The notes under the pieces are model-generated. The model searched no databases and had not been told where the DNA came from. It saw nothing but the letters and a program-made list of their open reading frames with translations. Positions 17,843 through 43,591 of a stretch of DNA of 45,011 nt are shown here, in pieces. Position 1 is the first letter of the stretch. Each line of letters begins with the position of its first letter. The position numbers were made by a program, and so were the translations under genes. This DNA comes from Trypethelium eluteriae (Eukaryota), in NCBI GenBank assembly GCA_051942245.1, contig JAVECL010000016.1, positions 62,001 to 107,011 of the forward strand, in the 5' to 3' direction.

Positions 17843-18660
17843 GGTGGAGATTCGAAAATGGGTTCGTCGTGTCAAGCTCAGGACGTCTCCAAGCTCCGGA
17901 GCGGAGAGCATCAAGCAACGACCAGTCAGAGCATCAGACGAATGCGGCCCCTAGCCGATGTTTATCCAAGGTCACATGACCTGGCCGGCTCCCGGAAAAC
18001 TCCTTTACATTGGTCCTGTGGCCAATGTCTCAGGCTGCTTGCTTTGCGATCAGTACGTCTCTGAAGGGTTTCCTAGGAGCCGGGCTTTCGGTCTGAAGTT
18101 ACTTCTGTCTTTCTGCCGACTACTTCTGTCATCCAAGAAGCTGTGTGGTGGACGGGATCCACAGCGTTGAGAAGCGTGCATTTCTATTTGACGCCAGACA
18201 ACAAGCGGCACCCGCTTCGCATCCTCCACTCTTCCATCCTGGCTTACCACGCACCTCCTCCCTTCTTCATTCCTTACCACTCAAGCCTGGCCACACCTCT
18301 CTTTCTAGCACCCCGCCATTGAGTCTCTGCTTTGTCGGAGACTTGTTCGTCAGATCTCGAGTATCGGGTGAGGTCTGTCGGGGCGCGTGTTGGCCCGCCA
18401 AAGGCACACGACCCGCACTGTCCCTCTTAACCACCCATCGACCGTACCTTTGCACGTTGACAAAGCGTCACTCTCTTCGCTTATGCCCAAAAGACCACTT
18501 ATTCGCCATTTGTTGCTGTTCATCGGTGCTAGGTGTCATCTGTGGATTTGACTTGTCCTCGGAGAATTGAGTTCGGATCGAGGAGGGAAAAAGTGGAAGC
18601 GACGACAGGATCAATTGCCCTCACAGTGTTGCGGAAGCCGCCATTCGATCTTTCTTCCAA
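17843..18660. promoter_or_regulatory. Divergent promoter/5' UTR region between MGR2 and VPS64
   Basis: Head-to-head start codons ~820 nt apart. Inverted repeat AGGTCA-CA-TGACCT at 17969-17982 and two oppositely oriented CCAAT boxes near 18009-18026. Confidence 0.45.
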
Positions 18661-21013: not shown

Positions 21014-22179
21014 TGACCGCACACTCTATGGAAAAGACTATCTCGCAGCTCTCAGCAAAGCAAACTCTTGAATTTGAGTATGCTACGAAAATCCGACGTT
21101 CTGCACCTACCAGTGCCGCGAGACCTACCTATACATCATCGGGCACGTTGCATTTACGAGAAGAGTACCTCAATGTAAAGCACGATACGCTTTACCGATC
21201 TTACGTCGCAGTTCATGAGACATGCCTTAAGTGGCGACTAGAATCTGTCTAATACAGTCTGGAAAGTCAGAACTCGATCTGGGGGCAAACCGATACCTCC
21301 TTCGACAATGAAGTCCCAAGCACGACTTTCACGACGACTAAAATACCCGTTTCCTATCACGTACAAGCTACCTCCAGGCAGTCCTTTTTCTCCCTAGTCA
21401 GTGGGCGTTTCCTTTGTACATTTGCACACAACATTGAAGGCGTTGGGAATCTTGCCGCCACTTTTGATGCGGTTTCATTTGGGATGGGTTTGGGGTTCGG
21501 ATCATGGGTGGACCATCTTCTCAGAATGACTCTCACGAGAGTCGACTCTCACTTTTGAAGCTGTTTTGGTACTGTATGTCTATAACGAACCTCCTTGGAT
21601 TCTTTGGAACTGCATCAGCGGGTGCTTAGAAGTAGTACTACGCTTCAGTATACATATTGAGCCTTGTCCGTTCTCCTGCGTACGCTTGTCAGTGTAGGCC
21701 ATATACGGAGGAATATATGACACCTTTTGGAGTACATACTAATGTTCAAATTTTGGGGTTCTTACATATTAGATCTGCACCCTGGGTACGGAGTACCTAC
21801 GGGGTACTTTTAAGACGTACATTTCCAAAAGAGGAAACTACAACCTGGAATGGATGATGTGCACGTGATCTTACTACAATGTCTGACTTCATCCATTGCT
21901 CCACCAATGTAGCCAATATTTGCCCAACCATCTCGAGAATTGTCTGCACGATGTCCACCTTCTCACAATCTAACATCCAGACCTAAAAAATCCTGTCGAG
22001 CGCAGACTACAGGACCTTACTCTGGCAAAACTACCTTAATATTCGAGATGGATTTCCTTGATCTTGATTTGCTGAAGCAACACAGGAAGGAGCCTTTCAG
22101 TACTACGAAACAAGTACCGAATATCACCAAGCACGAAATTCGCAGTTGAGCGGACTTATCCAGACTCGTTCAGTCAAGA

Positions 22180-23439
22180 ATGCCTAATGTGGAAACATAC
22201 AACATATGCAACGTCGAAGAGGATTTCAATGAGCTGGCTTTAAGTAACGCCCAAGGCATTTCTCTTCCAGATGAAATACTCTTGGAGGTGCTTTCATATG
22301 TGCGCGACACCGCTGGATCTCAGCAAACCCTCTGGTCGTGTTGTCTGATCTCACGACAGTGGTATTCCTGCGCTGTCCCGTTCCTGTACGAGCACCCGAA
22401 TCTCTATGGCAAAAACTTCGAACCATTCGCAGCTACTATTTGTCCATCTGTCAACCTTCACATTCGAAAGAGTCCTCTAGCAGAATATGTGCGGGGTCTG
22501 GATATGGGAAGGCTTGTACATCAAGGTAGCAAAAGTTTGACGGCACGCATACTCGGCAGGGTGAAAGGTGGACTGGAGGAGTTTGTGGCACCACAAGCAT
22601 CCTTCGGTATTAATTGCTTCGCAGCGTTATCGAAATGCTCAAAGCTACGACTAGTGGATCTGTCGCTCATCGTTGAGACTATACCTCTTGACTCTCTTCT
22701 AAGATGTCTTACTCATCTGCTCAACCTGTGTATCCTATATTTCCCGCGCCTCTCGGATTCAGAAATAGAACTTGAGCTAGCACAATGGTCATGGCCACCA
22801 AATTTACGCGAGTTGTGGATCACGAATGGAGGTGTACCGGACTCTTTCCTACACAATGTCTCCGGACTCCCTTCTACCTTGGATACGCTGGCGATTCAGC
22901 GCTGTGCGAAAGTGACCAGTCAATCTTTGCGGCGCTTGCCAGAAAAGCTATCCAGTCAGTTACGGGTGCTCCGAATTTCAGAACTTCCACGGCTCAGCTG
23001 GACGTCACTGGATGGCGTACTAGCACGCTGCCCCAATCTCAAGCAGCTCAGCGTTCCGATTAACAACATCACGCAAGCTTTCTTCGATGACCCGAGCGAC
23101 CTTGAATACCTGGAAATTACAATCTCAAATGGAGCTGGTGGGGAACACGAAGTCGTACCCGTGGATGTCTGCTTTGCAATCTCGGATAATCTACTCCCGA
23201 ACCTTCGTGGTGTCTGTTATCCCGGGACAATCTTGAGTCAATCCGAGGAGTTCAGGAAGGAATTTGACACGTTGGACTGTTTGCTTCGAGAACGTCTTGA
23301 CGCGGATGAGCCGACAGAGTGCGCATTCAAGGAGAATAGAATGACCATGAACTTGACGCAGATGGTCGAAGAGAACCTAATTGGAGCTTGGCAGTGGTAT
23401 CCACAATATGAGGCACGCCATGAGTTACGACATCATTAG
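22180..23439 (+). CDS. F-box/leucine-rich-repeat protein, 419 aa
   Basis: F-box motif SLPDEILLEVLSYV...LWSCCLISRQWYSCAVPFLY followed by LRR-like repeats (CSKLRLVDLS, PNLRELWI, LDTLAIQRC, LRVLRIS, CPNLKQLSV, LEYLEI). Confidence 0.9.
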   Translation: MPNVETYNICNVEEDFNELALSNAQGISLPDEILLEVLSYVRDTAGSQQTLWSCCLISRQWYSCAVPFLYEHPNLYGKNFEPFAATICPSVNLHIRKSPLAEYVRGLDMGRLVHQGSKSLTARILGRVKGGLEEFVAPQASFGINCFAALSKCSKLRLVDLSLIVETIPLDSLLRCLTHLLNLCILYFPRLSDSEIELELAQWSWPPNLRELWITNGGVPDSFLHNVSGLPSTLDTLAIQRCAKVTSQSLRRLPEKLSSQLRVLRISELPRLSWTSLDGVLARCPNLKQLSVPINNITQAFFDDPSDLEYLEITISNGAGGEHEVVPVDVCFAISDNLLPNLRGVCYPGTILSQSEEFRKEFDTLDCLLRERLDADEPTECAFKENRMTMNLTQMVEENLIGAWQWYPQYEARHELRHH

Positions 23440-24731
23440 GCAAGAAGGGACGATGATATATTACGCGTGAGCTGTCGTATGTTTAGTTCAACGAGAGCAA
23501 GTACTCAATTTTTTCACCTCCAACGTATCACACGAGCAGCCCAAACGCAGAGCTCATAAACTCAAGTAAGCGAGGCTAACAACTTGCGCGTCTTGATGGC
23601 CTAGCAGACTGATGGGACATCAGAGGACCTCTCCGAAATCGTATAGTAGACCACCCGACGGGCGACTCTGGATATCAGATACCAGACCCCAGCCAGGTGT
23701 TTTAGAGTGTTGTAGGTGAACAGCCGTATCGATATCCTTTTGAAAAAGGCCAAGATTCTCATACCATCGGCTAACACTCAATCTCTTGGCGTGTTTCAAA
23801 CGTTCACCAATGCAATTGCTGCGCACTTTAATTCCATACAAGCGTTGTGGGGTTAATTAACACCGCACGGTGCATCGCTTGCTTGCCTGATTCCCTCCAT
23901 GATTCGCGTTGTACGCGTTACTAAAATTGAGGCCGATGGCTGAAGCTGACACCCTGAGGTGTGGCAGTAATCCCAAAACTACTACCTAGCTTCCGCGACA
24001 TTACGTCACTTGGCCTTTACAGAGAACGATCTCATGCTGGATGCGAAAGTATAGTTTTTCAACGATAATACGTAAGGCGCTTCGTTTGGAGGATCTCGTG
24101 TTGCTGCAGTCTCATCGTAACTTCGAGCAAAAGGACATTCTCCACTCAGTTTTGGATCTCATGACATTTATTCCGAGTTCTGATCGCTAGCACTCGGTAT
24201 CTAGCAATGCACGACTCTGTGGATTCGATCCCGATCACCCGGCACGGAACGGTATGGATCTCGCTAACGAGTCGCTAGCATAGTCAAACTCCCTGGCGAA
24301 ACGGTATTTGGCCCCCACCACAAAAGGACATTTCTATAGTTGGCTTATCCTTTACAGCTAACTAGCAGCCTCGCTGACGTCGGTCGCAAGCATTATTCCT
24401 CCCACTCACATCCTTTCGTGCGGCTGCCGTGGCTGCTAAGCCTCTACCCAATCCCGTGGCTTTAATAACTTATGAAGTTGATCAATGCTTCGGAGCGGGG
24501 CTGAGCTTCAGCTATGGATATAGTATCGCCCGTTTCGAGTGTTGGGTACCCGTGGACTGCAGACTTACATCTATGCTGCAGCTACCTTAATGGATTTTGT
24601 CCCCGGAACTTCGTCTTTGGTCGTTGTCGAAGCCTTAGCTTGGAATGTTGATACCTACTTGGCACCCTCTCTCTTCACAGCTCCGCTCAGCGCTTTGATG
24701 ATTACGATAAAACGACAAACGATCCTTCAGT

Positions 24732-27665
24732 ATGGCGAGAATGAAGTGTAGCGATTACACTGTAGGATGGATTTGCGCAGTGCATGTGGAGTATGTTGTG
24801 GCGGCGGGAATGCTGGACGAAGAGCATGACGACCAAACGCAACCTTTGACTGAGTGGGACGACGAAAACTCCTACACCTTTGGTCGGATAGGCCCCCACA
24901 ATGTTGTCATTACATGCTTACCAATTGGCAAATACGGAATAGCTGCTGCAGCTGTAGCAGCGACGCATATGAAGAGGAGCTTCAAATGTATCCGGATGGG
25001 CCTCATGGTTGGCATTGGCGGCGGTGTACCCAGTAAAAATCACGATGTGCGACTCGGAGATATCGTAATAGGGGCATGTGCAGGATTGACAGGATCGGTC
25101 CTTGACTACGACCATGGGAAAGTAATGCCAGATGGTAAATTACAACTCACGAAGCACACAGACAAGCCACCATCAGTTTTGCTGAACGCGCTCTCAAAAC
25201 TAAGACGAGACCACGAACTAAGAGGAAATATGATTGTGTCCTACATCAAAGATATGATGGAAAAGAACCGTCTTCTACAAAGTGAGAGGAGATACAATCG
25301 TCCACCTCCAGAAGAGGACCGATTATACGAGACGTCCTATCAGCATGTCAACGAAGATTTAAGATGTGCCGAATGCTGTGAGCCACGTTTAGTAAATCGA
25401 GGTCGCTCACGAATGAACCCGGATAACCCTATTGTACATTACGGCCGGATTGCTTCAGCGAGCAAGTTGATGAAAGATGCGCGATATCGTGATCAAATGG
25501 CCGACGAACACGAGGTTCTCTGTTTCGAAATGGAAGCAGCTGGCTTGGACGACTTTCATTGCTTGATCATCCGCGGCATCTGTGACTATGCCGACTCTCA
25601 TAAGAATGATACATGGCAAGGATATGCAGCTGCGGCAGCAGCTGGATATGCCAAAGAACTTCTCCACGCGATACCGAGCAAGGCCATTCATGAGAGCCAT
25701 CCTACGCCGATCTTGAATCAAGCAGAGCCTGACTACTTCGGGCGGAACTTTGCCACACCGAATGCATCTACTCCAATCCTAAACGGCTCTGTTGCGTCTC
25801 CCTCACCAGTGCCGAACGGCATGACCGTCTCTCAGCCGCTGAACAATGATATGGTCGCCTCGCCGGCACCTCTATACCGCAGTGGCTCTTCGTCTTCCTC
25901 GATTCCGGATTTGTCTGTCTCTCAAGTCTCTCAAGAAGGCTCTTCCGACTCAAGCGTATCTTTGCCTGTTCGACCTCATGCCCTTTCTCAAGTCTCAACG
26001 CAAGATTCCTTCAAATCCTTCGACTCCTCCATGTCGAGCGACTCGTTATCAATACCCGGCTATCCCCTATCCCAAACCGTATCAGAGGAAAGCCTTCTTC
26101 CGGGACATGAGTATGATTGCCTCTCTCTCAATGTCCCTTCGCCGATCAATACATTTGTTATGCGGGAAGAAGATATGCAAAAAATTAGACGGTGTTTTCG
26201 CCAACGAACAAACTCTCAAAAATCCATCCAAAGGATGGCACTGAGGGGGATGGGCGGGTCTGGTAAGACTCAGCTCGCAGCAAAGTATTGCCATGATTCT
26301 GCAGAGGAGAAAAGATATGATTATATTGTTTGGCTTAATGCATCTGAGCCAAATCTACTTGAACTTGACATAGAGCAAATAGCGCATCAACTACCTCAAA
26401 AACGCCATTTCTTGTCTTCAAGGTTGAAAGAGGCATCGGATTGCCTGAGCTTTCTTCACGAATTACTTAGCCAGGCGGACTCATGGCTCATGGTCTTCGA
26501 CAACTTTGACGAACCTAAACCTTTTCGCAAAAATCTGGACAAATATATTCCTTCAATAATCGCCGGGCATGGTCGGGTACTTATCACAAGCCAGCTTGAT
26601 GAACAAGGTCTAAAACCGTTTGTCGATACAGTCCTAGATGTTGAGAAGATGCAACCTCAAGAAGCGGAAGAGTTGCTTTTTGTTCGAAGTAACAATCAAA
26701 GTGATGACGAGCAAATCCGAAATGATCGTCTTAGTGACGAGCAAGAGACTGCCTGGAAAGAGCTTCTAAAACAGCTAGACTACCATGCCCTCACAGTGGA
26801 CATTCTCGCAAGTCACATTCTCACCGGCACTCTAACCGCCAAAGAGTGTTTGCAGCAGGTGGATGCTGCGCTAAAGCTCGATACTGACTCGTCGTATGAT
26901 CGGACATCAGATGAGGTCTGCAAGCTTGCCCTAAATCGCATTGCAGGGCCAGAAGAAACCATGAAGAGAGACGCATACTTGATGGTCCTTGCAATTTTCG
27001 TGCACATTCGTGACCATCCTATCATGAAAGATTGGTTCTTTTATTACGCCGCAGTTGCAGCGCAGCTTGGCGAAGTCCGACCATGGATGAAATATTTCCT
27101 CAAAGATGGTAGCGACTACGAATTATGCCCAATCAAATTTGGACAAGGGTTGAGAGACCTTACAAGGCGGTCGATCATCAAGGATGTCGGGGGCAGTGAA
27201 AACTCATCGGGTCCAACGGGCTTCACCATGCATCGTATCATGCGTCATTGCCTCGAGTCATACCTAAAAGTACAAAAGTACGGAACCTCAACACTATATG
27301 AAAGCTCTGAGCTAGATGCAGTGAGCATGTTGTTTCTCTGGTGGAATAAGATCCACGGCCCCAAAATGGGACACTCACGGTCCTCTAAGGTATTCGAAAT
27401 AAAGACATTGTTGATCACGACTTGTACTGGCCAAAGAGTTCGGGATAAAGACGAGGTCTATGAGTTCAACGTCCTTGATCGTATCGCGCCAACTGTGGAG
27501 AGGCTTGAAGCGGTAGCTCGAAGAGAAGGATTTCCCAAGATTGCTAGGAGAATCTGGTACGGACGAAAATTTTGGAAATGGGCTCAATACCCAAGCCTTG
27601 TGGGGCCCAAGTCATATGCGCAACACCAAAGAGACCAAATCTTCAAAAGCTTTTCGCGCAAATAG
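24732..27665 (+). CDS. Fungal NLR-like protein: PNP_UDP nucleoside phosphorylase effector domain + NB-ARC, no recognisable C-terminal repeats; 977 aa
   Basis: PNP_UDP motifs DYTVGWICA, GLMVGIGGG, DVRLGDIV, CFEMEAAG and IRGICDYADSHKND-WQ-YAA. NB-ARC motifs: Walker A LRGMGGSGKTQLA, Walker B WLMVFDNFD, GRVLITS, LDYHAL and MHD-like FTMHRIMR. Confidence 0.92.
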   Translation: MARMKCSDYTVGWICAVHVEYVVAAGMLDEEHDDQTQPLTEWDDENSYTFGRIGPHNVVITCLPIGKYGIAAAAVAATHMKRSFKCIRMGLMVGIGGGVPSKNHDVRLGDIVIGACAGLTGSVLDYDHGKVMPDGKLQLTKHTDKPPSVLLNALSKLRRDHELRGNMIVSYIKDMMEKNRLLQSERRYNRPPPEEDRLYETSYQHVNEDLRCAECCEPRLVNRGRSRMNPDNPIVHYGRIASASKLMKDARYRDQMADEHEVLCFEMEAAGLDDFHCLIIRGICDYADSHKNDTWQGYAAAAAAGYAKELLHAIPSKAIHESHPTPILNQAEPDYFGRNFATPNASTPILNGSVASPSPVPNGMTVSQPLNNDMVASPAPLYRSGSSSSSIPDLSVSQVSQEGSSDSSVSLPVRPHALSQVSTQDSFKSFDSSMSSDSLSIPGYPLSQTVSEESLLPGHEYDCLSLNVPSPINTFVMREEDMQKIRRCFRQRTNSQKSIQRMALRGMGGSGKTQLAAKYCHDSAEEKRYDYIVWLNASEPNLLELDIEQIAHQLPQKRHFLSSRLKEASDCLSFLHELLSQADSWLMVFDNFDEPKPFRKNLDKYIPSIIAGHGRVLITSQLDEQGLKPFVDTVLDVEKMQPQEAEELLFVRSNNQSDDEQIRNDRLSDEQETAWKELLKQLDYHALTVDILASHILTGTLTAKECLQQVDAALKLDTDSSYDRTSDEVCKLALNRIAGPEETMKRDAYLMVLAIFVHIRDHPIMKDWFFYYAAVAAQLGEVRPWMKYFLKDGSDYELCPIKFGQGLRDLTRRSIIKDVGGSENSSGPTGFTMHRIMRHCLESYLKVQKYGTSTLYESSELDAVSMLFLWWNKIHGPKMGHSRSSKVFEIKTLLITTCTGQRVRDKDEVYEFNVLDRIAPTVERLEAVARREGFPKIARRIWYGRKFWKWAQYPSLVGPKSYAQHQRDQIFKSFSRK

Positions 27666-28307: not shown

Positions 28308-30188
28308 ATGGCCTCTGAAGAAAAGAAGGCTGACGGCGCTTCGCTCCCCGAACAACCTAAGCAGGAGGCTCCGTCTAGCGACGCCGGGCCCTCCAAAAAT
28401 GCGTTGAAGAAGGCCGCCAAGGATAAAGAGAAGGTCAGACTACACAATTCCAGCCCCTCAACCTCCATCCTCTCTACCCCAGCTCGTCCAATTCCCCACT
28501 AAACTATCCATCCTCAGGCTGAAAAAGCTGCCAAGCGCAAAGCGCAAGAAGACGCCCAGAAAGCCGCGTCCGCCGCGTCCGACGTCTCCTCCCACGACTA
28601 CGGCGACCTCCCCACCGTCGGCCTCACCCCATACACTCCCTCCGGCGTGCACCGCATCACGCTGCGCGAGCTCGTAGCGCAGCTGCCTCCGACCCCGTCA
28701 GGGTCCGGGGCGCTGCACGCGGAGGAGGCGTCGGCGGAGCCCGAAGCGCGGGTGGCGCTGCGGTGCGTAGTGGAGAACGCGCGGGTGCAGAGCGCGAAGC
28801 TGGCGTTCTTGGTGCTGCGGCAGGGGGCGGAGAGCGTGCAGGCGGTGGTGGCGGCGAGCGAGACGCTGAGTCGGCAGATGGTGAAGTTTGCGGGGGGGGT
28901 GCCGGCCGAGAGCGTGGTGTTGGTGGAGGGGGTGGTGCGGAGGCCGAAGGAGGCGATTAAGAGTGCGAGTGTGGGACATTTGGAGTTGCATGTGGAGAGG
29001 TTCTTTGTGGTGAGTCGGAGTGAGAGTCAGTTGCCGTTGCAGGTGGAGGATGCGGAGCGGGCGATTCCTGCAGAGGGACTGGAAGGGAAGGGTGAGGAGG
29101 ATGATGGCAGGCCGATTGTGACGCTGAATACGAGGCTGGAGCATCGGGTAATCGACTTGAGGGCGAGGCATAATGCAGGGATCTTTAAGATCAAGGATGG
29201 AGTGTGTGCGCTTTTTTCGGAATATCTAAGAGACAAGGGATTCGTTGGGGTACAGACGCCAAAGCTACTAGGAGCGGCGACAGAGGGAGGGAGTAATGTG
29301 TTTGAAGTGACGTATTTCGGAAAGAAGGCTTATCTGGCACAGAGCCCACAGTTTTACAAGCAGATGATGGTAGCTGCGAGGTACGAGAAGGTCATGGAGA
29401 TCGGACCAATCTTCCGAGCGGAAAACAGCAATACAGCGAGACATTTAACTGAATTTACGGGTCTGGACATGGAAATGGCGTTTGAAGAAGACTATCACGA
29501 GGTTATGACGGTGCTTGAGGAGTTGATGCTACATATTTTCAACGGTCTACGGACGAGATACGCAAAAGAGACAGAATTGGTCCGGAGTATCTATCATGTC
29601 GATGAGTTCAAGCTTCCAGAAGCCGGTAAGGTGCCTCGAATACAGTTTCCAGAAGCCGTCAAAATGCTCAGGGGAGCTGGTGAACAAATTGGAGATTTCG
29701 ACGATCTCAGGTACTTTACCATTCCTCCTTATTATGAATATGAGCTAATCGTCTTTAGCACGCCGCAAGAGAAACTCCTAGGCCGTCTTATACTTGAGAA
29801 ATACTCAACCGACTTCTATGTCATTGATCAATATCCTCTTGCGGTTCGACCCTTCTACGCCATGCCCTCCGCACAAACTACCTCTGCTCCGCTATCAGAA
29901 CAGTACTCCAACTCATACGATTTCTTCATGCGCGGTCAAGAAATCATGTCGGGCGGACAGCGTGTTCACGATGCTGCTCTCCTCTCGAAGAGAATGAAGG
30001 AGTTTGAGCCACCATTGGATCCCACGCATCCTGGTTTCAAGGACTACGTGAATGCGTTCAAGTATGGATGTCCGCCGCACGGAGGTGGTGGGATCGGCTT
30101 AGAGCGAATTGTCATGCTGTGGTTAGGTTTACCGAATGTTCGACTGGCGAGCTTGTTTCCTCGGGATCCTGTCAGACTTGCACCCTAG
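28308..30188 (+). CDS. DPS1: Cytosolic aspartyl-tRNA synthetase, ~582 aa, 3 exons
   Basis: Lys-rich N-helix SKNALKKAAKDKEKAEKAAKRK, OB fold, EGGSNVF...AYLAQSPQFYKQM, FRAENSNTARHLTEFTGLDMEM, GCPPHGGGGIGLERIV...LFPRDP. Introns 28434-28517 and 29711-29758. Confidence 0.96.
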
Positions 30189-31576: not shown

Positions 31577-32011
31577 ATGTCACGAAGGGTGTGCCCTGAT
31601 TCAGCCCTGCGAGCCGAAAGCAGTGCAAGGACCAGAACACAGACTCTTCCTTACAAGGTCAGCAACGGACGAGTTCAGGATAAGTTATCGGCCTATGATG
31701 ATTTTCCTTGGAAGAAGATCGAAGCCTACTTGAAGCAAAAGTGGCCGGGTTGGACGAACTTCAATGAAGTGCATGCACGTATACCTACATCTAGTCATGA
31801 GACGTAATGAGTAGTTTTATGGAGTGGCTGACGCGCCCGCAGGTGGGCGATAGCTGGCAGTTTGAGGTTCCCGAAAAGTTGACCGAGGTGAGTGGTAAAA
31901 GCATGGGGCAAGGCTTGGGGCTGAGGCGTGTCACAGGCAGATCGAGAAGCTCTCAAGCGGGAGCGAGACGCGCCGCGAAAGCAGCGTGAGTCAGTCTCAC
32001 CTGAACGCTAA
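31577..32011 (+). CDS. Small (~103-105 aa) uncharacterised soluble protein, 3 exons; first gene of the putative three-gene cassette
   Basis: ATG at 31577 (AAAAATG). Exon 1 ends at 31768 (GT donor) or 31774 (GC donor). Exon 2 is 31843-31887; intron 31888-31936 (GTGAGT...GCTGAG...CAG); exon 3 is 31937-32011. Product: MSRRVCPDSALRAESSARTRTQTLPYKVSNGRVQDKLSAYDDFPWKKIEAYLKQKWPGWTNFNE(VH)VGDSWQFEVPEKLTEADREALKRERDAPRKQRESVSPER*. Confidence 0.8.
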
Positions 32012-32328
32012 GCAAACAATTTTCTGTTGTTTCAAGGGCAGATCGGGCAAAGGGTATTACAAGTGGCGTGTAGAGACCTAGAATATCATCTCTTGAATGG
32101 GCGTTAGTCTTCAAACAACTTTGGGCTTGAAAAGCGGCTTCAATCCAGAACCCCTGATCTTCCTTGTTTTAAACCTCCCCAGCCGCCGAGGCTTACTTCG
32201 CAAGACCGATTGAAGACGCCATCGTAGACTTTAAATGCTTTCAAAAAGTGCGGCATCTTTTACGACCGGCATCACATAGCTCCACCATTCATTACTCATC
32301 TAATTCATTGGACTGAATTGGTAGAGTA

Positions 32329-34314
32329 ATGCCCGAACTACCCCTACCTGCTGAGTTGGGGCTATCTTTCAGCAACTGCAGCGACTATCCTGCCAATCTG
32401 ATCGTGAAAGGAACGTCCAATCATCGTTCGACGCTCAGCTCCTACAAGAAACGGCTGGACGATGCTGAGTCCAAGCTTTGTCTTATTCCAGACACAGATG
32501 ATGTCGACCAGGAGTTTGAGGTTCACTTCAGAGACCTCAAAACAGCGGATGGAAAGGGTAAATAGATATTCGGAATCGACTATGCAAAACTCTCAATGCG
32601 CTGACTATCGCAAGATGTTGATAAGAAGAACGTACATTCCCCAGATGGGGTAGCCCGATGGCTTGGGACCAGCTTCACTCCGAGTTCTGTTGATTCCAGC
32701 CAGCGGATAGCCACGTTCTCGAAAAGAGATCCAAAATGTCGCTTTATGTACACCAAAACACCACCCATCACATCGAGTATGCGCTGATCAAAGTCTAGAT
32801 ATCTGTACGCCGAGAACAGTCGCGACAAGCTAAAAGTCACTCGGGAAGTGCTTGTCCAGATCCTAACCTTCCACCAAGTTATGCCACTTTACCTAGATTT
32901 CATGTTCATCTTTGGAGCTCAAAGCGACCCAAAAGACTTGCGATTCAGCGGCTTTCGGGAGAGGACTATGATGCGAGACCCAGCACGTGGATTGCCAGTG
33001 CCTAGCCTAGGTCGCAGCGGTCGAAATTTTCAGATTTCCTATAATCTGAAAGGCGTCACGTTCAAAAGTAAAGGAAACGAGAGCATGAGACTTGATGAGT
33101 GGTCGATACGTCAGGCCGCTATCTATCACCAATTTGATATCGTATTTGGCACGACGTTGTGGATAGTCACAAAAGGCAGATTAGACATCCAGCAGCGCTA
33201 CAAAGAGCTTACAGGTCCTGATGGAAGGGCTGAAGACAAGTCATTTGACTCCCTCGAAGATTGTTTCCGCTCCACGTTAGCCGCTCATTTGCTATATTGT
33301 CACTGGTCAACAGAAGACTGGCGCTGGTACATTCGATGGCTGGAGGATATCATTGACGAAGAGGTAAGGAAGCTTGCCTTCGTGTAAGCTCTGCTAACTC
33401 TGTCCAAGAGTTCCATGGTGGTATACGGTCCCCGGGGTCCTGGTTACGCTCACCGCGAGTATAAACCGTATCACATTCAAGATCTGCAATATTGGCAAGA
33501 CAAGACCAATGAAGCTGTCATGGTTCTTGAAGCCAATGTTGGGGTAATCTCTGCGTTACGGAAATTCTATGCGAATTTGAGAGAGCATAAAGACTTTCCT
33601 GCCGAACTGAAAAATCGTGTAACAGACGATATCATTAGCTTCGCTGCTCACCTTGACGAAATCACCGATGACTTCAATATGCAAATCTCACGTGCTAAGC
33701 TCCTGGCTGGCATAACTAACGACCGCAAAGAACTTGTGGTCCAGCATCTCCAAGGACAGGTCGCGGAGCGAACGGAGCGATTGAACCTCAATCTCGAAAG
33801 GGAGGCTATTGTAATGCGAATCATCACTATTGTTACCCTTGTGTATCTTCCTGCTACCTTTGTATCAGTTAGTATACCTGTGCCTTAGGACAAGTTTTAT
33901 ATGCTAATGTACCATGTTCAGACATTCTTTAGTACCGATATCGTTAAATATCAGGATCAAGGAGATGGCAACGGTGCTCCGGGAAACGGGACGTTCTCCG
34001 CTGTCGCCATGCGGCGATGGATCCAAGTGACACTTCCCTTGACCGCTCTAACGCTTGTTGTTGCCTATTCGACATATAAGATTGCAGGACACACCAGACA
34101 AGGGGTAAAGCTCTTCGAACATTCTAGCCAAGCCAATAATCCTGCTCAGAGAAAGGCAAAGAGACGGCCTACGAGTTCATCACAACAGCGATCGAATCCT
34201 GGTCTATTCAGGGGGTTGACTCGAAGACTCAGTGCTCTGCGCATGTTGAACGGAGCGTCGCAGGCGAAGGCATCATCTCTGCCACTCCACGAGACATCAA
34301 AAGCTGCTGGCTAA
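32329..34314 (+). CDS. Fungal CorA-like membrane protein, ~592 aa, 5 exons, GMN motif replaced by STD
   Basis: Introns 32558-32614, 32748-32798, 33364-33408 and 33868-33921 all join in phase. Soluble alpha/beta region (DPKCRFIYLYAENSRDKLKVTREVLVQILTFHQVMPLYLDFMFIFG...WSIRQAAIYHQFD), long stalk helix, then REAIVMRIITIVTLVYLPATFVSTFFSTDIVKY and a second TM WIQVTLPLTALTLVVAY. Confidence 0.88.
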
Positions 34315-34504
34315 AGAGCTTCAGTAAACCGTGGATGATAGAGGAAACGGGCATGCTTAGTGGGATCGTCGATTCTTCATACGCCTCCCTAGAAGCTCTC
34401 TCAGTGAGCAGTCTCCGCCGATGGATAGCGTCAATGTAGACCGGGAAATGTTCTACGCGTAAACGACGTGTGGCACATGATCGAAAAAGCTCGCGGGGAG
34501 GTAA

Positions 34505-34800
34505 AACCTCTCCTAGACTAGGTAGGTAATTAGCCCCTCTAGCTTTTCTTCAGATAACTTCTTCCGCAATACCTACAATAGCAGTCTTGGGGATTTTTGT
34601 ATTAAGTGCCTAAGCATAAGAATTCGTTTTAACAACCGCACACTTGAATCATTGGTAGGTGATGTGGCACAACCTTGAGACCTATAAGTCGGTGCGAACT
34701 CTTCGAAGGTTGGGGGGACGGATAATGGATTCGAGTACTCTAGGCTAGGCTAGGGGGTGAGCTTGCTGGTGAGAGCCTACGGATGGACGCTAGGTACGCT
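34505..34800. other. Second CTAG/TAG-dense patch (possible RIP-mutated relic)
   Basis: Seven CTAG tetramers (34513, 34518, 34539, 34740, 34745, 34750, 34790), including a (CTAGG)3 run. Confidence 0.3.
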
Positions 34801-35974
34801 ATGCCACAGGTAGCTGGTGCACCACCGTACCACACCAGCTTTTATCAAGCAACACTGACGCCACTTTCGGGCGATAAGCTTTCCGCTCCAGCAAACGGCT
34901 GGATTCGGTCGAGTAGCGGGGATCATAGGATGGTACATGGATGACAGGCTTATTCTTCGAGTCTAGCGGAAGATCATTACCCGTGAACCAAGGATAAGTC
35001 CCCACTTAATTGACTGCTGCAGTTTCCCCTTTGGACCTTACCACCTTCACCTCGGCCCACCGGTTCTTAGGTACTACACCAACTTCCTGTACCCGATGCC
35101 TACGACTTGCATCAGCGTGCTCTGAAACCCGTGATGATGGTCGCTACTGCACGAGGAAATTAAGAGAATTACGACGGTGTTTTCACTACTTTCTCGCTAA
35201 GATCCTTGTGCGGATCTCTCCAGATAGGTCTGAAAGGCTCCATTAAAGGATGCCACCGGACGCAGGAGGATGACGCAGATGTGCATTTTTATACGTTGAG
35301 TCATAGGGATCCTTACGACTTTCTCCAGTACGTATAGAGTGTACGGAGTACAGCCCTCTCCCACGACAGTCAGATCCTCAGCCGAGCCAGCAGCAGCAAC
35401 GTGGCAAGAATCGTAGATTTCCTCTGTTCAAAGATAAGTAAGCCTTGACCTTGTGCAAGGAGTTTAGTGCTTCTAGTCGCTGAGATCATGATTAGATGTC
35501 ACCTGGTCGTATCGTACGCTGTCCTCGAAACAAAAGCTTACTGTGGAGTGAGCAAACAATATGCGAAGAGCCTCGAGGCGTGTAGGGTTGATGTGCAAAT
35601 CGATTATTGACGCAGCTAGGCCCCGGGCAATCCCAGTCTCAGGGCACTTGCAGCTTGGGCACCTGCTGGATTACACCATGAGATGATCCAGCTTTTCAAG
35701 CGCCACCGCGCGCAGCCCCTCAAGCGCCACTTTGCGACGATAGGTCAACACGCTCATGAGCGAAGCTGATTGGGTTGCATCTCCCCGCCTTCACAGACTG
35801 GAGCGACTTTGCTTTTCCCAAGCTCTCTCGCAAGGCTGGAATACTGCGCGGGCGGAGCTTCAGCTGCGATGACTCTACCTTTCAGACCCCGACAGATCTC
35901 ATCTTCTATATGGCGGGTTGATCGCAACGTCTATCTCGTCTTGTCTTTCTACATATGACTTCTTTGATCAACGA

Positions 35975-38900
35975 ATGCATGCTGGAACCGGTGTCGCGAT
36001 GGAGGCCCGCGACTCGAGCTATCTCGAGAGGTTTTCGGCCAAGCTGAAGAGTGATTGGACCCACGTCGCAAAAGCAGCTTGTCTTCGAAAATGCCAGCAC
36101 CCAAGAGAGGGCTGCTGTAAGCGACGTTTCATGCATACAGCCGAGATTATTCGATGGATGAAATCCTCGGGCTCCAACGATTCCGTGCAATCCAATGACG
36201 CGACACCAAACGCCGATCGCTTGCTCAATGAGCTTTCTCCAGAGATGAAACGCCATCGTTCGTTTCCACTTGATTCGAAGTCCATACTTGAAGGGAAGAA
36301 CAAGTGCGTTCTAGTTTTTAGCATCCTCCTCGAGCAAGGCTACGGCCATCTTATCGATCTTTTCCAAGATGCGAAAGTTTACGATACGGTCCTGGAGTTG
36401 CCAGATTACAAATACCAAGACAAGCTTCGAAAGGAACTCAACGAAAACAAGATCGACAATGTGGATCAAGTCATTGAGAGCTTTGAGGAAGCGAAATGGG
36501 CATATTTGCCATCTCGGCTCTCTCTTCACATGACAGAGAGATTTGAGGGCGGCAAGTTCGTAATGCCATTCTGCAGGCGGGAGACTGTCAATGAAAAGGG
36601 TGGTACAGCATCAGTATCTCGGGTAGCTGTAAAGGAACAGTTCATTGTAGATCAGGGCCTACAAGAGGCTTTAAAGAGCTCTTTATATGACGACCCTGAT
36701 TTTGGAAATGTAAGTCTTTTCTGATTTTGTGAAATGCTCCACCTTACTTACAAGAGGGTTTCCGTAGTGCTATCAAATGGCCCTCAAGTCTTACTCCAGC
36801 GGTATGCGGACCGTATACAATTGGGAAAAAGACGCTTTTTTTGCTCTACGTCGTGATGACAGCCGTGCAATCGTGAATTATTTCGGATCCTATTCTCACG
36901 ACGAGCCGAGAGAAACCCCCGAAGGCATTGTTAATGATACGACTTACAATATCTTGCTGGAGTATGGTCAGATGGACCTTGATGAATATTGTGCCGATCT
37001 AGCAAATGTACCTCCAGTAAGAGCGATGGAAGTCATACGCTTCTGGGAGTCATTCTGTACAATCGCCGATGCCATCAGACGAGTCCACAACTTTCGTATT
37101 CGTCAAGGGAAGCAGGAGAATTTCTATAATGGGTATAATTTTCCGCTGGCTTTAAGCATTCATTTACTTACGCCGACAGATGGCACGCTGACATTAAGCC
37201 GGACAACATATTAGTAGTCAACGGCGAATTTCGGTTAGCGGACTTTGGCTTTGCTAAATTCTCAGAGACTGTCAAGAATACCACTCTTCCTACGGAGTAC
37301 ATTGAGGGAGGCACGGACACTTATGGTAGGACCATAGCACTGAACACGATAGGATGATCTTGGCTAATTTGCTCAATCCCCAGGCGCTCCGGAATTTGCC
37401 AGGATGAAACAGTCAGGAACAAGGACTACGGTCACACAGACCATTGATACCTGGTCATTTGGATGTGTCCTCTCCGTGGTTGCAACATGGATCATTCTAG
37501 GCTTTCAAGGCATTCGGCAATATGAAATGCTTCGGAAAATGGCGAACTCAAGACTGGGAATGAACACTGACAGATTCCATGATGGAAATGACTTACTGCC
37601 AGAGATCAAGGACTGGCACGACTTCTTGAGAACCCATATGCGAACTTCTGATACTGCTACGCCGTTGATTCTTGAGCTAATCGAAACGCGCATGTTGCGG
37701 GCGCATCCAGAGGACCGTCACGAATCAGAAAAACTATGCAAAGAACTGGCATCCCTAAAACAGAGAGCGACACGAGAGCATGATGACAAGAAAGTAAGGG
37801 AGACGGAGGGCTGTGTGAAAAAAGCACTATTAGTGATGGACAAGTATGCAGTCTTGCAGGATGACAAGACCTCTCGAGTGGACGGTCTGCACGTCGGGAG
37901 CCGTTTACATGTCAACATAATAGATGAGGGACCAAAGCCTAGTCAGTTTCATATGCCTGTGCAAACACAAAACCACGAATCAAATCGGGCTGGAAAAGAT
38001 AAAAGAATGCTCGATGTGCCGTATGCTAAGACGCCCCATCGGAAGGAAATTCTAGAGGAAGAGATGAAAGATATCCGACTATTATTTGGAATGAGTGAGG
38101 AAGGCATGCCTTCTGAACCTTTCTCTAAGCATTTTGGGGAAACTACGGATAGCCCCATCAACGATACACCTCCTCAAAAAGCTGGAGAAAGGTGGGGTGG
38201 GAGATTAACACCACGAAACCCGGCGAGCAGATCGATCTCTCCAGTCTACCGAGTTCCGATACCTCCACCAGCCTCAAGACCTAGCGGCTCTATTGAGAAC
38301 GAAGCTTTCAGTGAGCTCCGCATACCTGCTAGAGGCATTTCTCCAGCTCCATCACAAGCACCCGGTATGGTCCCACGGATCATTACTTCAGCTGAATTTC
38401 CTGATCAAAACGCCTCCTGGGCCGCAAGCCCCGAGGCTGTCCAAAGGGTAGATAATCATCAAAGTACTGCCACCGAGGATGCTTTCCCGCGATTCTTCAA
38501 TGGCAGCTCCTCGTCTAGTTCTAAAGTGAATCAAGGCGGACCAGAACCCCATAATCAGACCGAAGTCGCTCAGCATGAAGATAAGGGAAAGCTTCCCATG
38601 ACACCTGAAAGCTCTAGATCTCCCACCATCATGACCTTATCTCCTCCAACAGGTCATCCTTCACCCCCACATGTGTATCATCTTCCGTTCGACATCTGCA
38701 GTGTTCGCAGACGGTTGGAGGCCGAGAAACCCCGGTCGAACTTCGAAAAGTGGAAGGCAAAGATAGGCAAAGAAGTCAAAGATCCAGAACTTGCAAGACA
38801 CGTTGTAGACAGAGATATAGTAAGTCCTCATCCGTAGAATCTTTTGGTCTTTTTACTGATGTTCTCAAGGTTCTCGTTGTTGACAATGGAAGTACCATGG

Positions 38901-39853
38901 CTCAACATTGGCCGACTGCACAATTCGTCGCTCAAACCCTCGGAATGCAAGTCATGCCTCTGGACGATGACGGTATCGACGTGAGGTTTACCATTAATGG
39001 CGCAAAATACAACAAGAAAGCCCTTCGCGGCTCGAATGGCATCAAGGAACTGGAGAAGCTTCTAAGCTCGGCACGACCATCAGAGCCTCAGCCTGAGGAT
39101 TCCAGGGAGGCAACCGACATGAATTTCGTTTTTTCGGACTTGTTTCGTGATTATTGGACGAAAGGTATCCAAAAACAAACTATGATTTTGATCCTTACCG
39201 ATGCCGTTTGGGAGGGTACCTCTCTTGACAAGATGAACCAGACTATCGTTAGGTTCGCTCAGGAGGTTGAAAAAGATAGACGACGATTCAATCCGCGACA
39301 TTTTACTCTTGGATTCATTCACATTGGCGACGGAGTTGAGGAGAAGAGAAAATTGAAAAGTCTCGATGACGACCTTTGTAGAAAAAATGGGCTTAAGTGA
39401 GTGAAACATCTCGATGACGACCTCACTCGTATCAGCTAATAGAAACTTTTTAGCGACATAATTGACGCTTGCTCCTGGAAGACTCGTGTGCGCAAAATGA
39501 TACTAGGAAGTTTACTCGCCTACGAAGACGAGACAGAAGCGGATGGAGATGACGTGGCCACACTTTCATCGCCACAGAGCCCAACTGCGTCGCTTCATTA
39601 CGAACAACAGGTCTTGAATCGTCTCTTTGATGAGTTCAACAGTGGCCGGCTCAAAGTTATTCTGCCAGATCTTCGATCTCATCACATGCACGGCGCGTCA
39701 AGCCGAAACTCCCTCAGCGTGTCTCCGAGTCGGCATACTTTCGGTCTATCAACAAATAGAGATGCAACACTAACTGGCACGAGCTTGAAATCTACCGAAA
39801 CGAAGTCGAGCTGGAAAGACAAATTTTCTGCTCAATTTAAATCCCAAGGCTAA
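35975..39853 (+). CDS. Non-RD Ser/Thr protein kinase fused to a C-terminal vWA-like domain, ~1200 aa, 6 exons
   Basis: Introns 36710-36767, 37133-37179, 37326-37383, 38820-38869 and 39397-39453 join in phase. Kinase motifs: NEKGGTASV, MALKSY, WEKDAF, WHADIKPDNIL, LADFGFA, GGTDTYGAPE, DTWSFGCV. vWA motifs: VLVVDNGSTM, LDDDGIDVRFT, ATDM, MILILTDAVW, FTLGFIHIG, LKSLDDDL, DIID. Start at 35975 or 35999. Confidence 0.9.
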
Positions 39854-40779: not shown

Positions 40780-41828
40780 CTAGTAGCTCTCTACCTCTCC
40801 CCTCCTCCCCTCCTCCTTTAAATCCGGCATCCATCCTTTCGGTCTCTCTCTCCCCCTTACAATCAGTCCATACAACGCCTTTTCGACCTTCTCCACACTC
40901 TGCTGCATGACCCCCATTTTCTTCTGCACGTCCCAAGAGAGTGGGCTCGATCTATCAATATCGAGTCCTTCGAGCGTGGCACGTAGCTGCCGCAAATCCT
41001 GCATGACATCCCGACGGCGCGTATGCACCCGGCTTCCCTTCTCCCGACTCTCAGATACAGTAGCTGGCATATCAATCTCCATGGCCTCGGCGGAAGGCCC
41101 TACAGCGATTCCAGAGGGCCTTGATTCCGCATGCCCAGACGAAGAAGGCACATCGCTCCCCGGCAAGACCTGAGACGTCGCCATTGCCGTGATAGCGAAC
41201 CGCATCAGCTCGCCTGTCATGTCAAAGATCCCTAGTACGTAGTCCTCCAGCGACAGAGTAACGGGCGCATGCGGGTTTCCGAGTTCGGCTAAGCGAGCGC
41301 TGGCGTCTTGGTAGGAAATCAAGGTCTGGGTCTCGAGATAGTGCTGGAAGGAGAGAGATTCCATGAATTCTTGGTTACCGCCGGTGATGTTGCGGGAGTA
41401 GCGGTGGGCATTTTGGCCTTGGAGATCAGGGGAGATGGCAGAGTATTGGGTGCGGATATTTTCCCAGTGAAGTTCATTGCTTTTGGTAATAGATTGATGG
41501 AGAGGTTGATTGATTTGCCGGGCCCTGAGCTCTTTGGTGAGTTGTTGAATTCTGAAGCGCGGGACTTGCTAGTACCTTTGGAGCGCGAAGATTCTAGGGA
41601 ATCCATCATTAGCTTACGCATGAACAGATACAAACGAAATCGCACTGACATCTTTTTACTTGCGGCGGTGATATCTCGAGAAGCTTTTACAATCCGTTCG
41701 CGTCTATCATGATGCTCATCTAATTCTGCCCGAAACGTTTCGAACATGGGAAGGAACGGCGAGCTGGGCTGATCGCTTTGCTTATCCATTGCTTCTTCGA
41801 ATTGGCGTTTTCTTCCCATTTGGACCAT
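40780..41828 (-). CDS. TSNAX: Translin-associated factor X (TRAX; C3PO nuclease subunit), ~313 aa, 3 exons
   Basis: FETFRAELDEHHDRRERIVKASRDITAASKKIIFALQR via introns 41649-41594 and 41575-41525 (18-nt micro-exon). Catalytic acidic motifs QEFMES and DYVLGIFDMTGELMRF. C-terminal KKMGVMQQSVEKVEKALYGLIVRGRERPKGW. Confidence 0.93.
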
Positions 41829-42156
41829 CCAGAGATTTGTGAGATTTGAACACTATGCGAAGACGGACCAGTGCCTGTTAGTATCTGGAGTAGGCGAGCA
41901 GCTTGGAGGTCTGGGCAAGATGGTATGGAAGAGGTAAGTACCTCCTATATGCACGTCATCCGTGACCCCTGCAATTGGTCAATTTAGCGCAATTTCGACA
42001 CCGGAAGTCTCGTTTCTTCTCTCTACTCCCCACGAAACTCTGTCTATGAGGTACCCTTTCTCGCCCTACATGAGGGATTAGTTCGTCGATGCTCAATGGG
42101 AAACTAATGTCATTCGTCGTTGCGTTTTGTTCGTTCGTGCCCGAATCGTCCCCAAC

Positions 42157-43591
42157 ATGGACCGCTTTTGGTCCAACTCGCGACTTGTCTTTGGTTCTGC
42201 GGTTCTTCTGCGTGTTGCCTTGCTTGGATTCGGCATTTTACAGGATAACTACTCTCCAGTGAAATACACAGATATCGACTATTTCGTCTTCACTGATGCT
42301 GCTCGCTATGTTGCGACCGGGCGGTCGCCCTATATGCGAGACACATACAGATACACTCCATTACTAGCATGGATGCTGTACCCCACGGCTTGGGGCGGCA
42401 TTTGGTTTCTTTTCGGAAAACTTCTTTTCGCATTCGGCGATATCATTGCCGGTGGATTTGTTTATCGTATACTCCGGGATGGGGCTGATATGCCTCCAGC
42501 AAGAGCGTTAAAGTTCACGAGCATCTGGATCCTCAACCCGATGGTTGCCCAGATCAGCACAAGAGGGAGCTCCGAGGGTTTACTTGGAATGATCATCATG
42601 GCACTATTGTGGTCTGTTTTGCAGAAGAGAATCGTGCTTGCTGGGTGTCTACTCGGGTTTGCGGTACACTTGAAGATATATCCGTTCATCTATGCGGCTT
42701 CAATCATATGGTGGCTCAATGAAAGTGCTTCAGCTCAAACGTCAGGCAAACACACCCGAAGTCCGAGCACAGGTCTTCTCGTGTCCCTCCTCAAATTTTG
42801 CAACAGGTCTCGCGTCCTGCTGGCCCTCTCCAGTGCCATTACATTCTTCTCTCTCAACGTAGTCATGTACGCGCTGTATGTGTGCATCCTCTCTCTTCAT
42901 ACTACTTTCTGCTTACAGTTTCCAGATACGGCCGGCCATTCCTAGAGCATACCTACTTCTACCATCTTACCCGGACTGACCATAGGCATAATTTTTCGCC
43001 TTATAATATACTACTCTATCTCCAGGCTTCTCCGGAAACCCAATCGAACGTTCATTTGGAAAGACTGGCGTTCCTTCCCCAATTATCCTTGGCTCTTGTG
43101 GTCATTCCACTTGCACTTGCTAGAAGAGACCTGCCGTCCACGATGCTAGCCCAGACCTTCGCCTTCGTAACATTTAATAAGGTGTGCACAAGCCAAGTAT
43201 GTCAAACGTCTTGAGATGCAATATTCAGGCTAACTAGAATAGTATTTCCTGTGGTACATGATGTTTCTTCCATTTTACCTGTCTTCATCATCTCTTCTCC
43301 GAAACCCCCAAGTAGGCATCGTGGCGCTTGTGGTCTGGGTACTCGGCCAGGTAAATTCCCTAACCTCGGACAATAAGACCGTGCCACTGATGTTTGTCAC
43401 AGGCAGTTTGGATTCAGCAAGCCTATCAATTGGAATTTCTCGGTCAATCGACATTCGTTCCCGGCTTGTGGTTATCTAGCATAGCTTTTTTTCTGGTAAA
43501 CATTTGGCTGCTTGGTATCATCATTGCAGATGTAGGTCAGCAATCTACAAGGGTAGAATACGACAAGAGTCGAGCCAAGAAAATGTCGTGA
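42157..43591 (+). CDS. GPI14: GPI mannosyltransferase 1 (PIG-M), ~428 aa, 4 exons
   Basis: Motifs [16 protein letters not shown]...[46 protein letters not shown] and [13 protein letters not shown]. Introns 42876-42925, 43197-43242 and 43351-43402. Confidence 0.96.

Follow-up and report, generated by a model that had tools for sequence, protein, structure and literature searches.

Three linked genes of Pezizomycotina encode a small protein, a CorA-like membrane protein without the GMN motif and a kinase with a vWA domain, and may form a self/non-self module

In a stretch of 45,011 nucleotides (nt) from Trypethelium eluteriae (contig JAVECL010000016.1 of assembly GCA_051942245.1, positions 62,001 to 107,011 of the forward strand; the whole stretch is called the window here), positions 31577-39853 hold three intact genes on the same strand, which we named g1, g2 and g3. 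They encode a small protein, a CorA-like membrane protein and a protein kinase with a C-terminal von Willebrand factor A (vWA) domain, respectively. The linkage of the three genes as one unit is strongly supported, since the order g1>g2>g3 recurs in five classes of Pezizomycotina while the flanking genes are not conserved. In addition, the trio of several Pleosporales-like contigs is far more diverged than the sequences on either side of it. We therefore propose, tentatively and with slightly less than even confidence, that the module serves self/non-self recognition or defence as a channel-kinase system, in Pleosporales at least, with a conserved cellular role elsewhere being probable.

The gene models were rebuilt from the raw sequence. 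All frames were open and every intron had GT-AG borders (Table 1), so that an earlier reading made from the letters alone (the sequence-only reading), which had placed three intact, co-oriented, multi-exon genes at these positions, was confirmed. That reading had also put a protein of about 105 amino acids (aa) about 320 nt ahead of g2, which agrees with the measured 103 aa for g1 and 317 nt between the g1 stop and the g2 ATG. An alternative third exon of g1 at 32037-32081 was ruled out by the conserved tail found in other loci, which favoured 31937-32011. The gap between g2 and g3 is 1660 nt in the window and 0.8-2.4 kb in other loci.

Adjacency in annotated genomes was read from GenBank protein accession numbers. 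Since GenBank numbers the coding sequences along each record, consecutive accessions indicate adjacent annotated genes. The g2 and g3 accessions were consecutive in four of the five species checked (Capronia epimyces, Cladophialophora immunda, Massariosphaeria phaeospora and Whalleya microplaca), and in Clohesyomyces they were 8 apart on one 74.5-kb contig. They were also consecutive in Alternaria alternata. Likewise, the numbers of g1 and g2 followed directly on each other in Fonsecaea erecta (AYL99_01930/01929) and Cosmosporella (Fc.00g024510/520), and in Clonostachys byssicola they differed by two. The five classes represented are Dothideomycetes, Eurotiomycetes, Sordariomycetes, Leotiomycetes and Lecanoromycetes.

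A metagenome scan with the g2 alignment yielded 80 loci, which were dereplicated at 97% nt identity into 62 groups. Where the sequence continued for at least 2.5 kb beyond g2 (23 groups), a kinase gene followed on the same strand in 17 groups and no kinase was present in four (L024, L064, L076 and L079). In the groups of L014 and L057 (2/23), the kinase was located upstream of g1 on the opposite strand; here the trio was rearranged yet still together. By tblastn, g1 preceded g2 on its strand in 21 of the 28 groups whose upstream sequence reached at least 1.2 kb, and a regular expression added L066. The genes flanking the trio in the window, for a tRNA synthetase and a Translin-family protein, were seen in none of the 80 metagenome loci. 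Flank homology was equally scarce, with only 7 flank pairs among the 153 possible pairs of 18 long loci, nearly all of them Pleosporales-like contigs. Since the order of the trio was kept while the surroundings changed, the three genes stay together independently of their neighbourhood, which substantiates the linked unit that the sequence-only reading had proposed. No description of the trio or of PF26616 proteins, the family of g2, was found in the openly accessible literature searched, where an apparent match (PMC4986451) concerned coral and not CorA, and as far as these searches reach the linkage is new.

The g2 family carries the annotation PF26616, "CorA-like transporter domain", in the precomputed annotation of the database. 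With g2 exon 3 as the query, 155 proteins matched at E<=0.001, and the best 120 were all fungal or metagenomic and all contained PF26616. The nearest relatives were a Viridothelium virens protein, 99% identical over the 188-aa query, and a protein from a T. eluteriae metagenome-assembled genome, which showed no mismatch to g2 across the aligned part. Over the full length, g2 and the V. virens protein P0001 differ at 6 of 592 positions. The Pfam CorA family PF01544 stayed below its gathering score, with 21.8 bits for P0001 and 13.1 bits for exon 4 of the window against a cut-off of 27, and a PDB sequence search with a profile of 47 g2-family members gave no match even at E<=1. Since sequence methods barely detected CorA in g2, a structure-based fold search was required. 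The AlphaFold model of P0001 (predicted local distance difference test score, pLDDT, of 84.3) matched Thermotoga maritima CorA over about 460-480 alignment columns, and the Foldseek matches listed were all to T. maritima CorA (E 3e-9 to 3e-7, probability 1.0).

The first transmembrane helix (TM1) of g2 ends with YLPATFVSTFFSTD, in which FFSTD stands where CorA has GMN, and no GMN is present. The three residues S466, T467 and D468 are nearly invariant among 47 homologues, and the mean column identity of the family across classes is 41%. By its modelled fold, g2 is thus confirmed as a member of the CorA/metal ion transporter (MIT) superfamily without the defining GMN (GxN) motif, in agreement with the sequence-only reading. 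Because GMN is replaced by a conserved Ser-Thr-Asp, g2 is unlikely to be an ordinary Mg2+ importer, and since it fails the defining GMN test, we did not class it as a Mg2+ transporter.

The C-terminal tail of g2 is otherwise unconserved, and near its end there is a motif of the form (S/T)xLP(L/F)(H/Y). The pattern LP[LFSTVMQ][HYN] was found in 42 of 62 C-tails, compared with 1.1 expected from shuffled sequences, and the LP[LF][HY] motif is a candidate docking site. Conserved RRx[ST] sites were also considered in the tail; they were present in only 5 of 54 tails, and the idea was dropped for g2 and kept for g1.

The g3 protein has 1202 aa and matches the non-RD kinase of about 1200 aa with a C-terminal vWA domain that had been predicted. 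The motifs ALK, WEK, H[AGC]DIKPDN, DFG and GAPE are kept in g3 and 20 homologues, and the Pfam Pkinase score of exon 3 is 31.9 bits against a cut-off of 31.7. The Arg that precedes the catalytic Asp in RD kinases is missing, with HAD in the window and HAD, HGD or HCD in the homologues; judged from these sequences, the non-RD state is a trait of the whole family. From its motifs, g3 is predicted to be an active eukaryotic protein kinase of no named family. Its closest PDB relatives are TTK/Mps1, at only 45 bits.

The vWA assignment of g3 exon 5 comes from a structural model with a pLDDT of 91.4, for which the PDB matches listed were vWA/I domains, those of Ku70/80 and factor B among them (best E 3.6e-4, template modelling score 0.5-0.6). 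Pfam found VWA in 2 and VWA_2 in 3 of 16 family members, and the window sequence had no match. The metal ion-dependent adhesion site (MIDAS) is incomplete. It reads D-N-G-S-T in the window and D-[ND]-[GA]-x-[ST] in the 16 members, so that the first Ser is missing, and the Thr of TDM and the Asp of LTD are kept.

The small protein g1 belongs to a family that emerged by profile search only. A word-index homologue search with g1 queries of 35-112 aa gave no candidate, whereas the exon 1 profile matched 171 representative proteins at E<=0.001, including 29 at E<=1e-10. With few exceptions they are 56-160 aa in length, and the named ones are "hypothetical proteins" of Ascomycota. A Protein Atlas search with g1 and with the N-terminal domain of g3 returned unnamed Ascomycota clusters only, apart from an FTA2 match at 0.78, which is below the useful level. 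The family core reads YDDFPW..IE.FL..KWP.W ... W.FEVPEKLTE and the tail DR..L..RRDAP.R.R.SVSPE. The core is flanked by two conserved basic Ser/Thr motifs, RRxT[LI]P on the N-terminal side (in most relatives; RTQTLP in the window) and R..S[VI][ST]PE on the C-terminal side, and both look like kinase target sites. An AG acceptor was found immediately 5' of exon 3 in 11 of the 12 loci examined. In the lineage of L009, L010 and L013 (e.g. L009:594-1364), the exon 1 frame is open for about 257 aa further upstream, so that g1 may be longer here or fused to another gene, unless the open frame is fortuitous.

One intron-less contig (L001:105-2539) contains a complete g1 open reading frame (ORF) of 113 aa, a spacer of 410 nt and a complete g2 ORF of 599 aa. 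It is colinear with the intron-bearing genomic contig L062, lacks both g1 introns and about 198 nt matching the g2 introns, and retains the g1 stop together with the spacer. This contig, the only such case, resembles a spliced transcript that is either dicistronic or a read-through product. Two other intron-less g2 contigs begin 42-47 nt before the g2 ATG and are too short upstream to inform on g1.

A different pattern was observed in Pleosporales-like contigs. Their flanks align and the locus is therefore syntenic, while divergence in the trio greatly exceeds that of the flanks. L032, which is identical to L033 from another sample, shares 4471 nt of flank with L039 at 97.1% identity. By part, the identity is 99.4% over 3184 nt downstream, 93.8% over the 497 nt next to the trio and 89.9% over 790 nt upstream. 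The 8.7 kb between these flanks had no blastn match at E<1e-20 and only colinear patches of 65-78%. At the protein level, the identities are 51% for g1, 55% for g2, 43% for the g3 N-domain, 53% for the kinase and 50% for the vWA region, and the island of divergence stops at the neighbouring ORFs on both sides. The genes that flank the trio in L032 are the ORFs at 927-1598 and 10516-11565, both on the minus strand. Transposons as the cause of the shared flanks were rejected: the six flank ORFs have no transposon domain and one is a Peptidase_C78. A second case is L062, whose upstream flank is 91.6% identical to L029 and 93.9% to L026, with g2 only 67.5-67.9% identical at the nt level. As a contrast, L026 and L029 show a normal relation to each other, with 86.6% in the flank and 85.9% in the trio.

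The similarity among the diverged haplotypes is a mosaic. The kinase and vWA of L039 are nearer to L055 (66%) than to L032 (50-53%), and the g2 of L032 is nearer to L055 (62%) than to L039 (55%), which hints at old recombination between haplotypes.

Two classes of g2, A and B, which are 60% identical, occur in the Alternaria alternata/tenuissima complex. Among the accessions listed, class A was found in A. alternata and in A. tenuissima AA0115 and AA0120, and class B in A. gaisen and in A. tenuissima AA0116, AA0118, AA0119 and AA0121; the g2 of A. burnsii and A. dauci are 91-92% identical to class B. In the g2 tree (IQ-TREE), class B groups with Bipolaris and class A falls outside, with a Shimodaira-Hasegawa-like approximate likelihood ratio test (SH-aLRT) value of 97. 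The approximately unbiased (AU) test rejected monophyly of Alternaria g2 at p=0.009, for a group that was chosen after the first tree had been seen. The g2 of B. victoriae is 70% identical to that of B. zeicola, which we take to be its sister or a very close species, compared with 94% between B. zeicola and B. maydis. Tandem g2 copies were absent from all 80 loci. The strain distribution, the identity matrix, the tree, the AU test and the shared flanks fit alleles shared across species, for which the Pleosporales trio is a candidate, and the pattern fits long-term balancing selection as at fungal het loci. A pattern resembling the trans-species polymorphism that the sequence-only reading had suggested looking for was seen in Pleosporales, as a diverged island and as two g2 classes in one Alternaria species, while the lineage of the window showed no unusual divergence.

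We propose the following working model. The three genes would be one co-inherited functional module dating from early Pezizomycotina. In this module, g2 would be a CorA-fold, probably pentameric membrane channel whose outer mouth bears a ring of Ser-Thr-Asp instead of GMN, forming a cation pathway of altered selectivity. The g3 protein would be a non-RD Ser/Thr kinase capable of catalysis, with an N-terminal domain of its own and a vWA at the C-terminus for protein docking. The partner g1 would be small and soluble, with its two basic Ser/Thr motifs conserved, and would be carried, at least sometimes, on the mRNA of g2. Either g1 or the LP[LF][HY] motif in the tail of g2 may be the docking site for the vWA and/or the N-domain of g3. 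The kinase would then phosphorylate g1 at the conserved basic Ser/Thr sites and/or g2, and so set the open probability of the channel. Cation flux through g2 could serve as a signal or, if unrestrained, as a lethal membrane lesion. Since all three genes diverge together in one island, the parts probably must match one another, and a haplotype mismatch or lost restraint might turn the g2 channel into a lethal leak. The Pleosporales trio would then behave as a supergene, with several ancient haplotypes maintained at a single syntenic locus. The boldest form of this model is a new eukaryotic system of self/non-self recognition and regulated cell death, in which the vWA kinase senses mismatch or perturbation and opens the CorA-fold pore via the phospho-protein g1, as a supergene with ancient trans-species haplotypes and with a quieter form throughout Pezizomycotina. 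In this complete form we regard it as rather unlikely.

Alternatively, the trio could have an ordinary physiological role throughout Pezizomycotina, as a cation channel with a regulating kinase and a small regulatory subunit that serves ion homeostasis or stress signalling. The Pleosporales divergence would then reflect, instead of balancing selection, a turnover of ancient paralogues at the locus by duplication, differential loss or ectopic conversion. This explanation is a real possibility, and several observations speak for it and against a self/non-self role. The trio is conserved in five classes under purifying selection: the gene-wide Nei-Gojobori ratio of nonsynonymous to synonymous substitution rates (dN/dS) was 0.11-0.20 in all 13 close-pair comparisons (dS 0.03-1.2), so that between close relatives the selection appears to be of the ordinary purifying kind. 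Little or no variation is seen at the STD residues and at the catalytic residues of the kinase, and g2 is broadly conserved (41% mean column identity across classes). No hyperdivergence was seen in the lineage of the window (6/592 mismatches to V. virens), in Chaetothyriales, where the C-tails of two Cladophialophora immunda strains differ at one residue, or in the L007/L009 group, whose 92% identity is ordinary divergence. The sequence-only reading had itself named conserved orthologues as an outcome that would speak against it, and half of that picture was found, in the broad conservation, the low dN/dS and the near identity of the window g2 to that of V. virens.

Further points weigh in the same direction. 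No HET, HeLo/HELL, NLR, gasdermin or patatin domain was found by Pfam in g1, g2 or g3 (all exons and P0001), and the death domains of known systems are thus missing. The two Alternaria g2 classes look like old lineages in the tree and are equally compatible with paralogues, the AU test was applied to a group picked from that tree, and the close relationship of B. victoriae and B. zeicola is our presumption. Co-transcription of g1 and g2 is supported by a single cDNA-like contig, and in Fusarium graminearum read-through yields bicistronic transcripts for 4.9% of ORFs, according to the accessible part of a preprint (bioRxiv 10.1101/2021.11.08.467853).

However, an ordinary module must explain why flanks of 97-99% identity surround a trio of about 50% protein identity in contigs from independent samples, and why strains of one species carry different g2 classes. 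The absence of tandem g2 copies from the 80 loci does not favour paralogue turnover. The island also ends exactly at the neighbour genes, and the identity rises outward from 93.8% to 99.4%; such an outward decay of divergence is predicted by linked balancing selection. For these reasons the self/non-self or defence-type module in Pleosporales is the reading that we carry forward.

A wrong split of the genes was considered as well, in which g1 would be the first exons of g2, or g2 and g3 a single channel-kinase fusion protein. Public gene models do join g1 and g2 (P0045, P0060 and P0078, from two Alternaria and one Variospora) or g2 and the kinase (P0074 and P0088, from Cosmosporella and Variospora). 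In Cudoniella, one model (P0009) contains g1, g2 and the kinase and continues into ankyrin repeats. The window sequence would formally permit the donor of g1 exon 2 to be spliced in frame to an AG within codon 8 of g2, and four of the fused public models end their g1 part exactly at ...KLT[DE], which is the end of g1 exon 2. Against a wrong split, g1 has its own conserved third exon and stop, with the AG acceptor in 11/12 loci, and its relatives are mostly stand-alone proteins of 56-160 aa that are annotated separately beside g2. Most of the best 120 g2 models open with their own Met a few residues before a conserved LP..FQ.SY, and the intron-less L001 keeps the g1 stop and the spacer. For g2 and g3, the 1660 nt between them in the window and the 0.8-2.4 kb elsewhere argue against one protein. 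From these sequences, g1 is most probably a separate gene and the fused public models are probably annotation errors; we consider a wrong split improbable. Chance adjacency of three unrelated genes from expanded families would be hard to dismiss from one genome, whose neighbourhood alone proves nothing, and CorA-like proteins and kinases are large families in Pezizomycotina, but the same order and orientation in five classes, in 17/23 and 21/28 informative loci with unconserved flanks, leaves it virtually no room.

The neighbours of the trio are listed with the other features in Table 1. The sequence-only reading had named the flanking genes DPS1 and TRAX. Pfam supported the families, a class II tRNA synthetase and a Translin-family protein, and the gene names go beyond that support. 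An NLR-like ORF of 984 aa (24711-27665), with an N-terminal PNP_UDP_1 domain followed by NB-ARC/NACHT, is located just upstream of the tRNA synthetase gene, about 3.9 kb from g1. It was considered as a part of the system and rejected: no homologue was found near the trio in 80 loci, and its proximity therefore looks coincidental.

Table 1. Features of the trio and of other genes in the window (positions count from the first letter of the window).
Feature	Position	Strand	Description
g1	31577-32011	+	3 exons (31577-31768, 31843-31887, 31937-32011), 103 aa
g1 exon 1	31577..31768	+	64 aa; basic N-terminus, RTQTLP motif (RRPTLP in relatives), core motif YDDFPWKKIEAYLKQKWPGW
g1 exon 2	31843..31887	+	15 aa, VGDSWQFEVPEKLTE, then GTGAGT donor
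g1 exon 3	31937..32011	+	24 aa + stop, ADREALKRERDAPRKQRESVSPER, conserved R..S[VI][ST]PE tail
g1-g2 spacer	32012..32328	.	317 nt, g1 stop to g2 ATG
g2	32329-34314	+	CorA-like protein, 592 aa; exons 32329-32557, 32615-32747, 32799-33363, 33409-33867, 33922-34314
S-T-D codons of g2	33931..33939	+	outer end of TM1, position of GMN in CorA
LPLH motif of g2	34279..34290	+	short linear motif in the disordered C-terminal tail
g3	35975-39853	+	kinase-vWA protein, 6 exons, 1202 aa
g3 exon 1	35975..36709	+	N-terminal domain of ~245 aa, no family match (Pfam, Protein Atlas); conserved among kinase homologues
g3 exons 2-3	36768-37132, 37180-37325	+	kinase N-lobe and catalytic loop; HADIKPDN 37184-37207, DFG 37241-37249
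g3 exon 4	37384..38819	+	kinase C-lobe (APE, DxWSxG), then long, poorly conserved Ser/Pro-rich linker
g3 exon 5	38870..39396	+	vWA domain, degenerate MIDAS (VVDNGSTM ... ATDM ... LTDAVW)
g3 exon 6	39454..39853	+	last vWA strand (DIIDACSW) and C-terminal tail
Class II tRNA synthetase gene	28503-30188	+	5' neighbour of the trio (Pfam)
Translin-family gene	40780-41852	-	3' neighbour of the trio (Pfam)
NLR-like ORF	24711-27665	+	984 aa; PNP_UDP_1, then NB-ARC/NACHT (Pfam)
SGL/gluconolactonase-like gene	232-1311		Pfam
Sedolisin	1693-3579	-	with Pro-kumamolisin activation domain (Pfam)
Fructosamine kinase	14016-14960		Pfam
FHA-domain protein	18571-19920		Pfam
F-box protein	22150-23439		Pfam
PIG-M-like mannosyltransferase	42082-42945		downstream of the trio (Pfam)

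To our knowledge, the known fungal allorecognition and cell-death genes draw on a short list of domains, namely HET, NLR, HeLo, gasdermin, patatin, CHAT and SNARE partners. If the proposed model is true, the trio would add a new type of executioner, a channel with the fold of a Mg2+ transporter, and, in a kinase that has a docking domain, a new control logic. Eukaryotic cell-death clusters would be connected with the bacterial defence systems that use CorA effectors, and in the boldest form of the model the trio would be the fungal counterpart of those effectors and analogous in function to RIPK3-MLKL. PF26616 and a kinase family, both currently without a function, would then be given one that can be tested. 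Even under the ordinary reading, genomes that otherwise scramble their neighbourhoods have kept this gene order in five classes, which points to a complex or pathway worth study, and several public annotations probably fuse its genes wrongly.

Compared with the known CorA/Mrs2/Alr1 proteins (2-TM-GxN), g2 is alike in its alpha/beta N-terminal domain, its long stalk helix, its two C-terminal transmembrane helices and the TM1 signature YLPxTF. It differs by STD in the place of GMN, by a larger N-terminal domain (PF26616) and by a longer loop between TM1 and TM2. A CorA-family membrane effector has been described, in the accessible part of the source, for bacterial type III CRISPR with S-adenosylmethionine-AMP (SAM-AMP) signalling (PMC10600005). 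The likeness is a CorA-fold executing arm encoded beside its regulators, a role that is proposed for the trio; that system, however, is prokaryotic, kinase-free and driven by a nucleotide second messenger, and the trio has no Cas10, nuclease or second-messenger enzyme nearby.

Fungal het loci have been described as islands of divergence between near-identical flanks (PMC11138114, as far as its accessible text goes). Such an island was found in the pairs L032/L039 and L062/L029+L026, and none was seen in the lineage of the window. With the het/vic loci (hetA-E of Aspergillus fumigatus, het-c/pin-c and sec-9/plp-1 of Neurospora), the Pleosporales trio shares the narrow island, what look like multi-gene haplotypes and a gene tree that seems to cross species, going by the accessible parts of the two sources (PMC11138114, PMC4540973). 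It differs in having no HET, NLR, PNP_UDP, patatin, CHAT, HeLo, gasdermin or SNARE component, in being conserved across classes and in showing the pattern in Pleosporales only. The accessible text of the A. fumigatus het paper (PMC11138114) mentions no kinase, CorA or transporter, and that of a 2025 review of fungal cell death does not mention CorA.

In RIPK3-MLKL necroptosis, a kinase activates a membrane executioner that forms a cation channel, according to the accessible part of PMC12881547. The logic proposed for the trio would be alike by analogy, with phosphorylation releasing a membrane-permeabilising protein. The components are not homologous; g2 has a CorA fold and not a four-helix bundle, and g3 is a divergent eukaryotic protein kinase. 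TRPM6 and TRPM7 are TRP channels fused to an alpha-kinase; they too couple a cation channel to a kinase, whereas the trio has separate proteins and a kinase of the eukaryotic protein kinase type. Finally, the bacterial vWA-kinase "ternary" conflict systems combine vWA and Ser/Thr kinase with PP2C/FHA partners and have no CorA. The trio resembles them in pairing vWA with a Ser/Thr kinase, and adds a CorA-like protein to that pair.

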